This document shows positions 250 through 33,986 of a DNA stretch of 37,333 nucleotides, one piece after another (within the stretch, counting starts at the first letter, position 1; every line of letters starts with the position of its first letter). The stretch is from a virus (lineage: Duplodnaviria > Heunggongvirae > Uroviricota > Caudoviricetes). The DNA lies in the IMG/VR virus record IMGVR_UViG_2563366859_000002. One strand, given 5' to 3'. The notes under the pieces are model-generated. The model saw only the letters and a list, made by a program, of their open reading frames with translations, did no database searches and was not told the origin of the DNA. Position numbers and translations under genes: made by a program.

Positions 250-3195
250 TTAGTGCTTCCCTTCTATTAAGTCTAACCTAGCTTTTATTCTTTCTATTTC
301 TCTGCGCTGCCATGCCGCCTCGATATAGAATAAGAGATCAGGTCTGACCCCCCATCTAGATCCTGCTGGCGTTATTTCAACGCGCTCAATGATGTCTTCC
401 ATTACCATCACTGGATTATCATCCTCATCAACAATGATGCTCCCGTCATTATCAGTCAGCGGCATTTCCCTTTGGCCAGTAATGACGTCATCATATACTG
501 CGGGATAATCGTCATAGCAAAGAAAGGCATAGCGGCATGTTGTGCTTTCTTCTTCCATGAGTCCGTGAGAAATAAGAACATCACGAAGTTGCTGCGCGAT
601 TACACCATGATGTATCCTCGCCCCTTCTTCCCCCTTTATAGCGACAGCGTTCAGCCATTTATAAGCGATATACCTGACGTCACCCCAGGCATCCAGCAAT
701 TCTTCGTCAGGAGAGACCGGCTCTGTCTTTAATGTTCCGTCACTGGTAACCACAGGATTGGAGCCAAGATAAACTGTCGAGAACCTGTTTCCCGGACCAC
801 CAAGAGCATTTACATTATCAAGATAAGGTTTAACATCTCCGTTCTCAAAAAGATGTTCGAGTGCGTTATATACCGCGCGACGTGGAGTACTGCTTCCGGA
901 ACCATGCAACGTTATCATTGCACCATCTGCTGAAGACGTTGTTTCACCGCCGCTAACGATTAATCTCTGAGCGGTAACATCATCAGACGGTACTTTCTTC
1001 GCAATAATGGCGTAATTACCCTCAAGTTTGACTTCCGCGCGAACTTGTCCTGATGTACCTGCATGGACAGTCAGTGACTGGACGGCAACATCATCTGTGA
1101 AATCAACGGGTACAGGAACCGTCCTCACGCCTGACGTCGACATAAAAGTAGGAAGCGTTCTGTTAGGAGTGGCTCCGTAGACAAAATCCCTTGAAACAAA
1201 TTCTTCCTGTTTAATTTTCACCCTGAAACAATACAAATCAGCCGGGTGACCATCGTGAACATAAGGATATTTTCTGTTGTTATCCCCTATGCTCCATGGG
1301 TTTAGAAAGTCTTCCCCACCGAAAATGTAGTACAGCCAGTTGTCTTTGATACAAACTGAACCAACACCAACCGCAGAGTTAACTATTCCGCCCTGATAAA
1401 TCTGATCAGTAACATTAACCCACTCTACATTATCCAGACTCCACTCATTGACGTTAACTCTGGTCATAAATGTTCTTGGATAATTTCCTGCATAACGGTT
1501 ATCAGGTTCTCCTCCTTCCCACTCACCAAATGCGCGCTCACTGCCAAAAATAATCAGCTCATCGCCAACTTTGGCAAAAGGAAGGTTTGAGTGATGAACA
1601 TTATTTGGGAAGCGAAGAGAATTCCATGATGTACCTAAATCAGAGCTTCTGTGCAATGAACTACCGGGTTGAGTACTTAATGTCCCCCTGGTCGTCAGAT
1701 ACAGAATGCCATCATAATATTTTACACATGGCTCAGATGCATTCGCCTCATATTCTGCAGGTATGCGTCTGCGAACAAAGCTACCAGGAGAACCGAAAGC
1801 ATCAGAGAAATAGAGTATCCCAAGCTCGCGTGGGCCAATATCACCATTATGGTAGCCAACAGCAAAACTGTTATCGCTAATCGTCGCAAAACTGTGAATC
1901 TCAGTAACAGGAGTGCTTCCGTCAACAAAAGAAGGAATAGTTCCAAGACTGGTTTTTCTCCATGGTGACGAGTGAAATGATGTACCAAAACTCCAGTATC
2001 TACCCTCGTTATTCTGATCCACATCCTGGGTATTTTGCGTCGTAACTGTAAAAGTATTTTTATCAATAACAGTAGTCACCGTCATATTCCCGGTAACACC
2101 TGTAACACCAGAGTTTGAGAAGTTGACAAAATCACCAGCAAATAATCCGTGATCAGTAATGCGAATATAAGCGACTTGCTGATTTGCTGCTTTCGTTATA
2201 CCACCATAAACGCGAAGGCTGCGACTCATTGGGCGATCCCACAACTCTGCAACCTGCAGTTTATTTCCGCTCACGGTCCGCGTCTCAATTACAGCAAAAA
2301 GGCGATTTCTGACAACCCCCATACTCATGCAGTGATAGTTAACTGTGGGATAGTTTTCATGTAAATCTGTAAGCCATTCCGGCGTTGTCCAGGTCTTCCC
2401 GTCATCTCCTGAGCGAACCCATGCAACATGGAGGTTATTTACACCATGGCGGTCTCCAGCCATAAAAGGCGCATAGATGACATTGTCATATACAAACGTT
2501 TTATCCTGCGTCCAGGCGTTGTACCACGGTGTATCTGTAATTTTAAATAACTCTCCCTGGATAAAATCTTCAGAAGCATAAAAAAGAGGCTGACCCGGTA
2601 TTCTCTCAAATAAAAAACGAGCATTTTTAAATCGACTGACATCTGGAAGAGTTGATACTTTAAAAGTAAGCCCTCGCCCATCTATCTTTTCACCACCTGT
2701 TGCAACAGAAAGTAATTCTGATAGAGCTGATGTATCATCATGAACACCATCACCAATAGCCCCCCAACCTCTTACATCATAACTGTCTCTCCATCTTGCT
2801 ATCTGAAGTTTTGGGTATTTATTCGCTCCATCTGGGTCTTCTAATTGCTGCCGTAACTGATCAGGATCATACTTCAGCACATTCGGAAAATAGAACTGCT
2901 GTGTACCATACGCATCATAAACAGCCATAGAATGGCCTTGCACGGTTACGAACTTGGCAATCTGTCCGTTATATACCGGATATCCAGCGGCGTTAATGAT
3001 GATTGGTTGCGAAACAGGAACGTGAGAACCATCTTCGTTCTCAACATAGACCTGAATCTGGTTTTCAGGATTTACCGGGTCAGTGTCAATTTTACCGATA
3101 TAAATTTTGCCATTAGCTACGGCTTTAAAAGAACGCGCCATAGTGAAGAGTTGCGAAGGCATACTCACTACAACATTGGCTGTAATGTCTGTCAT
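250..3195 (-). CDS. Tailspike, 981 aa: P22 gp9-like head-binding N-domain, sialidase-like domain with two Asp-boxes (endosialidase-like), C-terminal chaperone-like domain
   Basis: N-terminus [11 protein letters not shown]...KYDPDQ matches P22 gp9; Asp-boxes SGDDGKTW (2389-2412) and SSDLGTSW (1624-1647); S-D at aa 818-819 before a conserved C-terminal domain. Confidence 0.85.
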
Positions 3196-20280: not shown

Positions 20281-20472
20281 TCACTTAGTTGTTATTTCAG
20301 GTCGTTGGCTCTTCATGCTTTCAATCAATGACTGCTTCAGCAATTCGAGTGTGCCAATAGCCTCACATACACTGATTTCACCATAATCATGGATGACGCT
20401 TTCCAGCCTCTCGTATAGCTCTTGAGTAATTGGGAATTTCTTCTCCTTACCCAAATTGATTACGCGGCTCAC
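20281..20472 (-). CDS. Hypothetical 63-aa protein upstream of terS
   Basis: Tightly packed with the 80-aa ORF and terS. Confidence 0.4.
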   Translation of the reverse strand: MSRVINLGKEKKFPITQELYERLESVIHDYGEISVCEAIGTLELLKQSLIESMKSQRPEITTK

Positions 20473-20473
20473 A

Positions 20474-20716
20474 TCATGCTCCGGTAGTGAACAGGTCTAA
20501 CGCTTCCTTCGATTTACGCACCGCTTCGATAGTGCGGGTCGTGATATCTGAATTAGCGCCGCCTGACTGGAAGTGAATTTTGAATGGCTCAAGCTTCAAC
20601 TCGTCAGTGCCAATGAACTGAAATGCTTCTTCTGCGGCTGCGTTCTGGTTCATGACCAGTTTATAAATCTCTAACTGGAATTTCTGTTCTTCAGTCATGG
20701 GAATAATCTCTGCCAT
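20474..20716 (-). CDS. Hypothetical 80-aa protein
   Basis: ORF abutting the 63-aa gene with a 1-nt gap; no motif recognised. Confidence 0.4.
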   Translation of the reverse strand: MAEIIPMTEEQKFQLEIYKLVMNQNAAAEEAFQFIGTDELKLEPFKIHFQSGGANSDITTRTIEAVRKSKEALDLFTTGA

Positions 20717-21073
20717 TGTTGGCTCCGTTTATCCGTTAAAAGGGATATCAGTTAAGTTATCCCGTGTAGGGTATAAGCCATTGTCGAGACCACTCATTGA
20801 ATGGTCTCTGCAATAACCGATGTCTTTCCATCAGTCCGCCACCACAAAGAATCTTTTTTGCCATAAGGCAGGAGGTTCATCTTTCAGTGGCTGCCGGTGT
20901 TATTTCCCCACTTACTGGCTTGGGTTGCTTCGTGGTACTGCCGTAACTGGTTGCCAAGAATAAATTCCGGTTTCATTATCAAGCCCACCCGTAGATGGGC
21001 TTTGTAATGGATAGCCGTTGCTCAGTTCTCGTAATGCTTTGATTTTTCCGATAACGCAGTTTTGCGTTTGCCA

Positions 21074-21595
21074 TCAGCACGCGATATCGAGAGTCAACTG
21101 CAGTTGCTCGCGCCAGTACTCAACATTTGCTTCAATAACCGGCTTATCCCATCGCCAGCGAGCCATCTCTCTTGCCCCATTGCTGGCTTTTGATTTCCGG
21201 TCATCGCGAATGCGACATGCTTGCTCATATTTCTGCTGCTCAGTCAGTTCACCGCGAAGCAGACTATCAATGTGCAGGTCGCACCACACAGCAAAACGAG
21301 CATCACACCAACGGGCAAATGCAACTGAAAGTTTTGGATGTAGCCACGTACCACCACCCCTGTCCTTTCGTGCCTTGCTGGTTTTTACATACCTCGATTG
21401 TGAGGGATGTAAAATTTGAGATTCTTTCCCGGTCAACGCTTCGTCTAAAGCACGAACGTATTCAAGCGTTTCTGCCAAACGCATCCAGTTATCAATGCGT
21501 TTCCCAAATCTCTCAGCAACACCTGTGACGTTGATCCAACCATCAGTGTTGAAACTGACAATTTCACCTTTGTAATTAAGTGGCACGATATTCAT
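21074..21595 (-). CDS. KilA-N domain protein, 173 aa (moron between lysis cassette and terminase)
   Basis: KilA-N-like N-terminal region WINVTGVAERFGKR...WLHPKLSVAFARW. Confidence 0.6.
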   Translation of the reverse strand: MNIVPLNYKGEIVSFNTDGWINVTGVAERFGKRIDNWMRLAETLEYVRALDEALTGKESQILHPSQSRYVKTSKARKDRGGGTWLHPKLSVAFARWCDARFAVWCDLHIDSLLRGELTEQQKYEQACRIRDDRKSKASNGAREMARWRWDKPVIEANVEYWREQLQLTLDIAC

Positions 21596-21709
21596 AACGT
21601 TTACCTACCATTTGAAATGAACCTTTGCCGCATAGGAAACCAGCCCACCGAGGCTCGCCAGCACTAACTGGCATCCTCAAAGGCCCATTCCAAAGGGGCA
21701 GGTTCGGTG

Positions 21710-21766
21710 TAAAAAACATGCGTTGCGGTACGCATTTATTGCAAAAAGCCCCGCATCGCGAGGCTC
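21710..21766 (-). terminator. Two tandem rho-independent terminators after Rz
   Basis: Minus-strand stems AGCCTCGC/GCGGGGCT and ATGCGT/ACGCAT, each followed by a U-run. Confidence 0.55.
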
Positions 21767-21796: not shown

Positions 21797-22234
21797 TTAT
21801 TTCAGGCATTGCGTCCTGATGTATTCCTGCAGGTAGTTAACCTGCGCGGTTATCTTGTCGATTCCACTTCGGAGACGGTAATAATTGAGTTCAGCATCTG
21901 CTGTAAGTCTTGGGCTTTCTCCATCGCCCATGCCGCTGGCTCCGGTCTTTGACTTTGCACAGGAGGCGGCGACTTGCAGCCGCTTACGCCCAGCAGAAAC
22001 ATCATCACGGAGACTTTCGATAGTCGCGTTAGCATCAGCAAGCTCCTTTGTATATCTGGCATCGAGTTCTGCTACATCACGTTGACGCTTCTGCATATCA
22101 GCGATGATGGATGTGGATTTATCGCGCTGGTCTTTGTAGGCGATGGCGTTATCACGGTAATGATTAACAGCCCATGACAGGCAGACGATGATGCAGATAA
22201 CCAGAGCGGAGATAATCGCGGTGACTCTGCTCAT
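21797..22234 (-). CDS. Rz: Rz i-spanin, 145 aa
   Basis: N-terminus [31 protein letters not shown] matches lambda Rz. Confidence 0.9.
21850..22035 (-). CDS. Rz1: Rz1 o-spanin lipoprotein embedded in the +1 frame of Rz, about 61 aa
   Basis: Signal peptide with lipobox VSGC followed by a Pro-rich segment; exact start uncertain. Confidence 0.6.
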
Positions 22235-33078: not shown

Positions 33079-33986
33079 GCAATATCGTTGAATTCGTTAA
33101 ACAGCAAGAGCAGTTATTCTGCGGAGCATTGACTGAACAGACGGTGACATGGGCTAAGGAAAGCCAGTTTGCAATTCAGTATTTCCAGAAAAACGATTAC
33201 CTGGCTAAAACAGCACTGGCAAATCCAACCAGCGCACAGAACGCCATCATCAATGTTGCGGCGATCGGCATCACCTTAAACCCTGCAAGCAAACTGGCTT
33301 ATCTGGTTCCGCGCGATGGCATGGTTTGCCTTGATATCAGCTATATGGGATTGCTCCATATTGCAATGGAGTCTGGTGTTATCTCATGGGGTCAGGCAAA
33401 ACTTGTTCATGCTAACGATACCTATGAGTCAAACGGGCTTGATAAAGCACCAACCCATAAATACAACGCCTTCGGTGATCGTGGTGATATCGTTGGCGTT
33501 TACTGCACAGTTAAGACGCCGGCAGGTGATTATCTAACGGAAGAGATGAGTCTGGCTGAAATTGAGGCTGTAAGGAAAACAAGCAAGGCAGCATTCAGCG
33601 ATAAAGGACCATGGGTAAATCACTGGAATGAGATGGCGCGAAAGACGGTCGTAAAGCGTGCAAGCAAGTATTGGCCTAAGGCATCACGTCTTGATAGTGC
33701 TATTCACGTACTAAACGAAGAAGAAGGTGTATGGACTGAACCAGTTATGCCGCACAAATCAGAGGAAGATATCCGCGAAGATGAACGGAAACGCCAGCAG
33801 GAAATAACGGATAAAGCACAACTTCTTTGTGATGAAATGGCTCAGGCAGAAAACATGGATGATTTGAAGCGATATTTTGCAGAAGCATATCGCCTGACAT
33901 CTGGAATGAAATTGCAGCAGAACATACAAGCCATTTACATAGAATGCAAAGCGAAACTGGAGGTTGCCAGTGAGCAAACTGTATGA
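33075..33986 (+). CDS. recT: RecT-family single-strand annealing recombinase, 303 aa
   Basis: Motif GPWVNHWNEMARKTVVKRASKYWP parallels Rac RecT GPWVTHWEEMAKKTAIRRLFKYLP. Confidence 0.85.
   Translation: MSNIVEFVKQQEQLFCGALTEQTVTWAKESQFAIQYFQKNDYLAKTALANPTSAQNAIINVAAIGITLNPASKLAYLVPRDGMVCLDISYMGLLHIAMESGVISWGQAKLVHANDTYESNGLDKAPTHKYNAFGDRGDIVGVYCTVKTPAGDYLTEEMSLAEIEAVRKTSKAAFSDKGPWVNHWNEMARKTVVKRASKYWPKASRLDSAIHVLNEEEGVWTEPVMPHKSEEDIREDERKRQQEITDKAQLLCDEMAQAENMDDLKRYFAEAYRLTSGMKLQQNIQAIYIECKAKLEVASEQTV

Follow-up and report, generated by a model that had tools for sequence, protein, structure and literature searches.

Our analysis concerns positions 20281-21766 of a 37,333-nt stretch of viral DNA (hereafter the window; IMG/VR record IMGVR_UViG_2563366859_000002, Caudoviricetes), and in particular the 357-bp gap that separates a KilA-N gene from the genes leading into the terminase. 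We find that this gap is a non-coding, strongly conserved and folded RNA segment on the strand of the late mRNA, and from sequence comparison we conclude that its best-conserved part is a real, divergent and shortened relative of the Proteo-phage-1 RNA (Rfam RF03044), not a member of that family by the Rfam criterion. From the order and families of the minus-strand genes it follows that the prophage is a P22/Sf6-like lambdoid phage, and the interval is its lysis-to-packaging junction. The greater part of it corresponds to the P22-type junction already described, which is standard for P22-like phages and lambdoid late operons. New are a compact form of a known RNA family, conserved and without annotation, and two covarying hairpins (H1 and H2) that mark moron slots. 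The first-pass annotation of this DNA had suggested that the gap may hold a regulatory RNA or a binding site, and this survives in the form of a conserved structured RNA element on the transcribed strand.

That annotation had also seen no convincing open reading frame (ORF) in the gap, and comparison bears it out, since the three ORFs of 30-35 codons on the coding strand are not conserved between related copies. Of 24 distinct sequences, 2 have AAG for ATG in the 35-codon homologue of P22 'orf25' (20864-20757) and 3 have one more A in its A6 run, hence a frameshift; an overlapping alternative ORF has ATA for ATG in 2 of the 24; and the ORF after H1 shifts frame by a 1-nt indel and is shortened in Emek. 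None of the gap ORFs matches a PHROG family. The A6 homopolymer itself (20854-20859), which is A7 in Emek and in loci L039, L093 and L113, is the sole recurrent length change in the core. In ST64T, the annotated orf118 (L004:1651-2007, 118 aa) is the non-coding 'orf25' sequence running through into the DUF2560 gene, a 36-nt deletion having taken out the stop codon and hairpin H3; translation probably begins in fact at MAEIT..., so that the product would have about 80 aa.

Lack of conservation had been named beforehand as one half of what would refute the proposal, and on this half the proposal stands, for the gap is conserved. By megablast the interval is matched in 226 phage records. Part of the gap is present in 2556 of 5426 complete E. 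coli genomes, and a 116-nt core in 1120 of them (about 20%), nearly always with at least 95% identity; among the E. coli matches listed (the 30 best and 60 spread across the ranking), none lies over an annotated feature. Diversity per site, computed over 55 distinct sequences, is 0.013 in the 110-nt core and 0.027 both in H2 and in the region of H3 and the Shine-Dalgarno sequence. It is 0.124 in the 20 nt directly 5' of the core (20944-20925), and 0.108, 0.066 and 0.181 at codon positions 1, 2 and 3 of orf80, the gene that follows the gap. By this measure the third codon positions of orf80 are roughly 14 times as diverse as the core, and the adjacent upstream 20 nt 9 times. A spacer between H1 and the core carries 1-nt and 9-nt indels among relatives and makes up, along with roughly the first 20 nt of the module, the variable stretch of our alignment A3 (columns 37-84). 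Measured against shuffled sequence, the fold of the gap has a z-score of -5.9 on the minus strand, which carries all genes of this part of the window, compared with -3.2 on the plus strand.

The relation to Proteo-phage-1, a candidate sRNA of Proteobacteria and their prophages, emerges from several comparisons. At the gathering threshold, an Rfam scan of the window gave no match; in E-value mode it gave a full-length, sub-threshold match to RF03044 at 20960-20889 (20 bits, E = 0.25-1), and P22 and HK022 also fell below E = 1 in this test. Both the conserved P2 loop of the family, AUAAGCCGGnnAGUG, and its 3' tail, AAAAACACCGGCAGCC, are present in the window, where 11 of 13 and 17 of 18 consensus positions match. 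A scan for these conserved blocks with free positions returned 120 viral and 31 genomic loci, in which a block spacing of 39-41 nt marks the bona fide RF03044 RNAs (42-86 bits), which come from Pseudomonas and Stutzerimonas, and a spacing of 33 nt marks the lambdoid form. The GCCnG of the loop can pair with the CnGGC of the tail, GCCAG/CUGGC exchanging with GCCGG/CCGGC. The free pair is G/C in four lineages (three Pseudomonas-type groups and L158) and A/U in four others (lambdoid, L133, L152 and L159); otherwise it is A/C, in a minority of lambdoid copies that includes the window, and no other combination occurs. The C responsible, C20896, stands where most lambdoid copies have U, and the loci sharing it span more than one flanking context.

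The Pseudomonas RNAs can be aligned far past the 82 nt of the Rfam model, over some 170-200 nt, with 98% of cells paired and 14 pairs showing compensatory change. This alignment (A6; loci L019, L038, L043, L094 and L128-L154) contains several extra covarying helices past the end of the Rfam model. Its members end in a GGCnGAC-stem-GRAAGA-stem hairpin, followed in the chromosomal group by U5-6. The module in the window ends likewise, in GGCGGAC-UGAUG-GAAAGA-CAUCG; the stems of this hairpin, P4, are wholly different between the clades and the loop is kept. The module has the loop-tail pairing, the closing helix and the terminal hairpin by which we define an extended Proteo-phage-1 RNA.

Detection by covariance models is reciprocal. 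In the 37-kb window, a model built from Pseudomonas sequences alone (R1) has a single match, which spans its full length and lies at 20931-20804 (10.7 bits, E = 0.12); it gives 14.9 bits on P22, level with the true divergent members of group B (12-17 bits). In the opposite direction, a model built from 28 lambdoid sequences (R2, noise level 17 bits) recovers bona fide Pseudomonas RF03044 RNAs at full length with 21-25 bits (E = 5e-4 to 6e-3). Its sole false positive, at 17 bits, is an array of short GGTCGGAAAAAAATCCGA-like hairpin repeats in a Pseudomonas chromosome (L129:1723-1823). With an nhmmer profile of the Pseudomonas sequences, the top match in the window is 20922-20889 (E = 0.033), which covers the 5' block and misses the P4 block.

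Several points weigh against so close a kinship, and against reading the conservation as functional. With 20 bits the window misses the RF03044 gathering score of 42 bits, which canonical loci reach or exceed (42-86 bits). The P1 hairpin of the family, with its internal loop, is absent, the cmscan alignment showing non-pairs there, and no covarying helix was found at 20960-20925 among the lambdoid variants. For P2 the window allows no more than CCC/GGG (20924-20922 with 20908-20906), which single uncompensated changes break in a few copies, in a helix that covaries well in other lineages of the family. The loop-tail helix of the window has an A.C mismatch (A20916/C20896), as do 14 of 125 lambdoid loci. 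The core is nearly invariant in lambdoid copies, and P3 and P4 have no covariation of their own there; because the lambdoid core hardly varies, these two helices draw their support only from the Pseudomonas comparison. The high conservation could come in part from recent horizontal spread and recombination and not from selection.

The two flanking hairpins provide evidence of a different kind. In H2 lies the perfect 7-bp inverted repeat GAGACCA/TGGTCTC (20786-20792 and 20802-20808) which the first-pass annotation had singled out, noting that no U-run follows. The repeat is indeed there, without a U-run; taken alone it is close to chance, since we estimate that about 0.4 such repeats are expected in 357 bp. 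As part of H2 it is a real and covarying structure, and the main feature of the gap is the module upstream of it. H2 folds better than any of 200 shuffles (-19.5 kcal/mol, z = -6.9). Across 21 variants 96.6% of its cells are paired and four pairs show compensatory change, for example G-C replaced by A-U at positions 1 and 3 and in the outer helix, and A-U, G.U and G-C alternating at position 4. The independent covariation events are few, because the changes come mostly from two lineages. H1 folds with -16.5 kcal/mol (z = -5.05), and its common variants (C to U in the 5' arm opposite G, G to A opposite U, and UACG to UGCG in the loop) all retain pairing, as G.U or U-A, on the sense strand only. 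When all helices are taken together, pairing reaches 99-100% on the sense strand versus 75-92% on the antisense strand, and for the variants of H1 and H2 alone 99% versus 87-89%, a pattern that fits G.U wobble pairing. The percentages are biased towards the sense strand because the structure was predicted on that strand; the direction of the substitutions is free of this dependence. Each of the two hairpins has a bipartite stem of 15-17 bp interrupted by a 2x2 internal loop, is placed between blocks of genes and lacks a U-run after it. A search of the window for further copies of their 3' arm with its GAUAAUG flank found H1 and H2 as the only real ones, a match at 33433 having no hairpin.

The matches of other phages to the gap begin or end at the edges of the elements: query positions 54-65 (5' side of H1), 100 (3' side of H1), 123-133 (5' end of the core), the point just after the GACAUC of P4, 304-316 (just after H2) and 346 (immediately ahead of the Shine-Dalgarno sequence). 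In mEp043 and in Stx2 phage 1717, H1 occurs by itself (query 65-100) behind the last post-Rz gene, and so as an exact mosaic unit. Phages that lack the KilA-N gene match the gap from query position 54-65 onward only. Directly 5' of H2, other phages carry nothing, 116 nt with a 23-codon ORF, or about 350-600 nt with genes. The insert of about 600 nt in BIS08P22, between P4 and H2, opens with an int-alpA RNA (L003:2404-2466, RF02996), which at 38.5 bits passes the Rfam gathering score of 35.8 and is closely followed by a hypothetical gene of 89 aa. Between H2 and orf80 it is P22 that diverges, carrying pid there on the opposite strand. pid is a genuine moron of the orf25-orf80 interval, relatives having no insert or a different one (Cenens et al., PMC3573128), and its transcript map is published (PMC8835761). 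Just after H2 in P22 (L005:1790-1830) we also see a strong opposite-strand terminator, AAGCCGCTAAGTAAGCGGCTTTTTT, in agreement with the published pid terminator. In the window every cargo slot except the first, which holds the KilA-N gene, is empty. Mosaic joints and moron insertions cluster here, we propose, because the two hairpins mark cargo slots.

Could all this be the signature of a functionless linker, left over at a mosaic joint and conserved in appearance through recent spread and through recombination's need of shared sequence? Every element edge is a recombination joint, the copies are 90-99% identical throughout, and in a core so nearly invariant selection is inseparable from recency within the lambdoid group. 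We nevertheless think this explanation unlikely, if the least unlikely of the alternatives. It has to account for the contrast, within the same set of sequences, between the core and both its upstream neighbour and the third codon positions of orf80, for substitutions in H1 and H2 that almost all preserve pairing on the sense strand only, and for homology to a structured Pseudomonas RNA, which lies beyond the reach of recent spread.

A second possibility is that the module is an independent small RNA (sRNA) gene with its own promoter, expressed in the lysogen and acting in trans like the anti-sRNAs of EHEC phages. Rfam types the family as an sRNA gene, the Pseudomonas group C copies lie outside phages with a U-rich terminator at their end, P4 is followed by UUAUU in the window, and phage sRNAs at conserved moron sites are known (PMC4104026). 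Yet a scan for consensus sigma-70 sites shows no promoter-like site upstream on the minus strand, and the upstream sequences differ between phages; P4 has no clear U-run, and its outer pairs are lost in the insertion-type phages. Moreover, complementarity to the module within the window is confined to 10-11-mers in chance numbers, with no match of at least 12 nt. We regard an independent sRNA gene as somewhat less likely still than a functionless linker.

The contexts in which relatives of the module occur are too varied to point to one biochemical role: they lie after Q-like genes and a terminator and before tRNAs and holin, upstream of recT/exo, or beside a relaxase. In L026 two tRNA genes (2862-3008) lie upstream of holin and 120-260 nt downstream of a canonical Proteo-phage-1 RNA, the position of the tRNAs downstream of Q in Stx phages; the tRNAs of ST64T are likewise upstream of holin (L004:1-129). 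The chromosomal copies of the Pseudomonas brassicacearum group (L131:3779-3983, L150:4130-4334) lie outside any prophage, directly 3' of a gene for a Cys-rich, metallothionein-like protein of 82 aa and upstream of a KGG-repeat stress-protein gene, and carry a U-rich terminator at their end. Other weak Rfam matches (isrJ, rimP leader, RT-17, STnc470) had E > 1 and no other support, and we set them aside as chance. A switch pairing of UCUUU with the GAAAGA loop of P4 was also dropped, as UCUUU varies in Pseudomonas under an invariant loop and the two do not covary. Among the papers searched, none names Proteo-phage-1, and the interval is not treated in the epsilon34 genome paper or in the EHEC anti-sRNA paper.

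Alternatively the gap might act as DNA, bound for example by KilA-N or Rha, by some host factor or by the machinery of packaging. Its sequence is conserved beyond what structure would need, and both neighbouring accessory proteins have DNA-binding domains. Against this, the core is present where neither KilA-N nor Rha is (as in ST64T) and in cos-type (HK022, HK544) as well as pac-type (P22, Sf6-like) phages, the pattern of substitution is strand-specific and RNA-like, and the Pseudomonas relatives have a terminator and covarying helices; a role as DNA thus seems improbable to us. A cis-acting processive antitermination RNA, like put of HK022, renewing terminator resistance ahead of the structural operon, is very improbable. 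The module does lie upstream of long operons in several contexts, canonical copies adjoin terminators, and the RNA combines stem-loops with conserved single-stranded blocks. Antitermination is, however, already supplied by Q (a 207-aa ORF identified by reading its translation); canonical copies sit after a strong terminator, not before it, and end in a terminator themselves; and the chromosomal Pseudomonas copies lie at the 3' end of a gene. It was this unsuitable position relative to terminators that led us to drop a put- or nut-like role. Least credible of all is that the gap encodes micro-proteins (the orf25 homologue and the 31- and 30-codon ORFs after the KilA-N stop), since for all that these ORFs lie on the right strand, the first overlaps the KilA-N stop codon (TGATG) and orf25 is annotated in P22, their start codons and frames are not conserved and orf25 has CCUCC, and no Shine-Dalgarno sequence, before it.

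Turning to the junction as a whole (Table 1), the minus-strand order is Q, holin, endolysin, Rz, KilA-N, the gap, an 80-codon gene, a 63-codon gene, terS, terL and portal, and a scan across the window for tRNA and tmRNA genes found none. The two small genes before terS, which the first-pass annotation had listed as unknown, are present, and the homolog search that it called for identifies them as orthologues of the known, uncharacterised P22 genes orf80 and orf59. The 80-aa protein is 98% identical to P22 ORF80 and passes the gathering score of DUF2560 (143 bits against a cut-off of 25); the 63-aa protein is 91% identical to P22 ORF59C and has no match in Pfam, NCBIfam, PADLOC or the PDB. Sequence searches of the three small proteins against PADLOC, NCBIfam and PDB gave a single weak match, of the KilA-N domain to the candidate family PDC-S22. 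Inside Rz, out of frame, a 70-codon ORF with a lipobox-like LLGVSGC motif (21850-22062, minus strand) is the expected Rz1 (o-spanin).

Table 1. Coordinates of the genes and RNA elements at the lysis-to-packaging junction, in the order of transcription (positions in the window).
Feature	Position	Strand	Description
Q	24071-23448	-	lambda-type Q-length ORF, 207 aa; identity from reading the translation, no family search
Rz	22234-21797	-	Pfam Phage_lysis, 2e-35
T1	21766-21743	-	strong intrinsic terminator just 3' of Rz; GAGCCUCGCG-AUG-CGGGGCU, then U5
T2	21735-21711	-	weak terminator-like hairpin; AUGCGU-ACCGCA-ACGCAU, then G + U6
Accessory-slot leader	21710-21596	-	conserved; the same leader precedes P22 rha
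KilA-N gene	21595-21074	-	173 aa; PF04383, 8e-22; phrog_129 'transcriptional regulator'
Gap	21073-20717	-	357 bp; no annotated gene
3' untranslated stretch after KilA-N	21073-21010	-	travels only with the KilA-N gene
H1	21009-20974	-	9-bp stem, c(UACG)g tetraloop, 5-bp AU-rich outer helix (AUUA/UAAU core)
Variable spacer	20973-20946	-	
Compact Proteo-phage-1-like RNA module	about 20945-20811	-	110-130 nt; best-conserved part of the gap, upstream of H2
Loop block	20921-20909	-	AAGCCAGUAAGUG
Tail	20901-20889	-	AACACCGGCAGCC
Helix P3	20891-20838	-	
Hairpin P4	20834-20817	-	GAAAGA loop
H2	20814-20780	-	10-bp stem, loop AAU, outer helix of 4-5 bp
Empty pid-type moron site	20779-20717	-	with H3 and the orf80 Shine-Dalgarno sequence
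H3	20763-20738	-	GGGAUA...UAUCCC + U4; inverted repeat I1
Shine-Dalgarno sequence of orf80	20726-20723	-	GGAG
orf80 orthologue	20716-20474	-	80 aa; DUF2560, PF10834, 3e-42
orf59 orthologue	20472-20281	-	63 aa; phrog_3546, 2e-38
terS	20273-19851	-	Sf6-type

Two consecutive terminators had been reported after Rz. Both are present, and only the first is strong. T1 has a GC-rich stem of 7-9 bp followed by U5 (-14.6 kcal/mol) and is kept in 41 related loci, where changes in the stem (for example U to C) retain pairing; it is common to P22, HK022, Emek and SE16, and the records of Emek and HK544 list a rho-independent terminator at the corresponding site. T2, picked up by a terminator scan, has a 6-bp stem and U6 with only -6.9 kcal/mol. 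It occurs in 15 of the 41 loci that bear T1, its U-run being restricted to the lineage of the window, Emek and HK544; at its position P22, HK022 and SE16 have a hairpin with different yet complementary arms and no U-run. If an intrinsic terminator is taken to be a GC-rich stem-loop followed by a U-run, T1 is a clear one, T2 a weak one and H3, with its U4, a marginal one, and H1, H2 and P4 are none. In lambda, polymerase modified by Q ignores terminators within the late operon. Because such a polymerase is expected to ignore T1 and T2 as well, their place inside a late operon, which had been thought unexpected, is no anomaly: the operon is Q-antiterminated and T1 is conserved across the relatives named above.

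The gene that follows does encode a KilA-N protein, as had been said (PF04383 over residues 7-114, 77.5 bits against a cut-off of 23.8, and so past the gathering score). That it is an isolated moron did not hold up. The leader before it is nearly identical to that of P22 up to the end of the aligned P22 stretch (about 21640), some 45 nt before the KilA-N start codon, and both leader and start codon are those that P22 uses for rha. The aligned leader covers the GTG annotated as the start of P22 rha (L005:896-1501); the real start is probably the downstream ATGAAT with which both genes open. KilA-N and Rha occupy the same slot without any similarity of sequence, and since the leader is shared and the proteins are unrelated, we take this to be a fixed slot with exchangeable cargo. 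Emek, HK544 and BIS08P22 have the same KilA-N gene at the same position, and across relatives the slot contains KilA-N, rha, a 242-aa ORF or, in ST64T, nothing.

In being present, absent or different at one site among relatives, the KilA-N gene behaves as a moron does; in having no promoter of its own it does not, as judged from a scan for consensus sigma-70 sites that predicted none on the minus strand between 19800 and 22300. Downstream, H1 begins 65 nt after its stop codon, a strong stem whose tail is UUGAUAAU instead of a U-run. With neither an own promoter found nor a canonical terminator following, the gene looks dependent on the late operon. For BTP1, a phage that carries the module too, expression in the lysogen is high for only five phage genes, of which rha is not one, and a single polycistronic operon comprises the lytic genes (PMC7067206). 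On the strength of the missing promoter and of the BTP1 data for rha, we read KilA-N as an exchangeable late-operon accessory gene and not as a self-contained moron.

How does the junction compare with known systems? The late region of P22 runs Rz, T1, leader, rha, 'orf25', pid (on the opposite strand), orf80, orf59 and gene 3. It shares with the window the gene order, T1 after Rz, the accessory leader, the core RNA module, H2 and the two orthologues, and differs in having rha in place of KilA-N, no H1, and pid where the site in the window is empty, the window terminase being of Sf6 type. Emek, HK544 and BIS08P22 are closer, with Rz, T1, KilA-N, H1, core and H2 at 97-98% identity; they differ in the 116 nt (with the 23-codon ORF) or about 600 nt (with the int-alpA RNA and two genes) between P4 and H2, and their H2 is the AAAGCC... 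variant. With RF03044 the module shares the loop block AAGCCnGnnAGUG and the tail AAnAACACnGGCAGCC in the same order, a loop-tail pairing kept through A-U for G-C, the closing helix, the GGCnGAC-stem-GAAAGA-stem hairpin and the reciprocal detection described above. It differs from the family in that P1 is missing, P2 is cut to 3-4 pairs, the central domain measures 38 nt instead of about 85 nt, no clear U-run follows P4, and the whole sits inside an operon, between lysis and packaging genes. Lambdoid morons (Juhala et al. 2000; reviewed in PMC3594210) are likewise extra genes in fixed slots, variable between relatives and bounded by hairpins or terminators; KilA-N departs from them in having no detected promoter and no canonical terminator after it. 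The bipartite stems H1 and H2 between gene blocks resemble in layout another class of phage hairpin. The RNase III sites of T7 and the sib site of lambda are intergenic hairpins that shape polycistronic phage mRNAs.

What might such a junction do? We lean, with modest confidence, towards a late-operon junction in which Q-dependent read-through of T1 and T2 is followed by an accessory gene, an untranslated chain of sense-strand RNA structures and the terminase genes. In the lytic cycle, RNA polymerase that arrives from the late promoter in its Q-modified form would pass T1 and T2 and then transcribe the accessory gene (KilA-N, or rha in P22), 357 nt of untranslated RNA, orf80, orf59, terS and terL. 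In the lysogen, unmodified polymerase would be halted by T1 and T2, perhaps also by P4 and H3 with their likeness to terminators, leaving the terminase genes silent. H1 and H2 would cap the 3' sides of two cargo slots, insulating the neighbouring gene blocks as protective or processed RNA ends or as weak terminators, and as shared sequence they could also serve as crossover points for the exchange of modules. The module itself would act as RNA, most likely as a stable domain released from the late transcript or working within it; in Pseudomonas the counterpart of P4 serves as transcription terminator for a discrete RNA some 200 nt long. More tentatively, and as something we consider possible and still short of probable, the module may be a functional regulatory RNA of the extended Proteo-phage-1 type, 120-200 nt long, with a loop-tail pseudoknot and a terminal GAAAGA hairpin, which, released or in cis, would control entry into the packaging genes or act on the host.

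More generally, the interval between lysis and terminase genes is usually taken to be spacer with optional morons. Our analysis indicates instead that the gap holds one of the most conserved non-coding sequences of P22-like and lambdoid genomes, P22 and HK022 included, left unannotated by NCBI in the E. coli matches listed and falling below the Rfam threshold. The comparison also corrects ORF annotations (orf118 of ST64T, and orf25 and the rha start of P22), and it shows that the Rfam model RF03044 ends after the 5' 82 nt of an RNA some 200 nt long. The link to Proteo-phage-1 gives an orphan RNA family a genetically tractable host system. If the module does prove to be a regulatory RNA, P22, HK022 and a fifth of E. 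coli genomes would carry an unrecognised riboregulator, and the genetics of P22 would offer a direct route to the function of the whole family.

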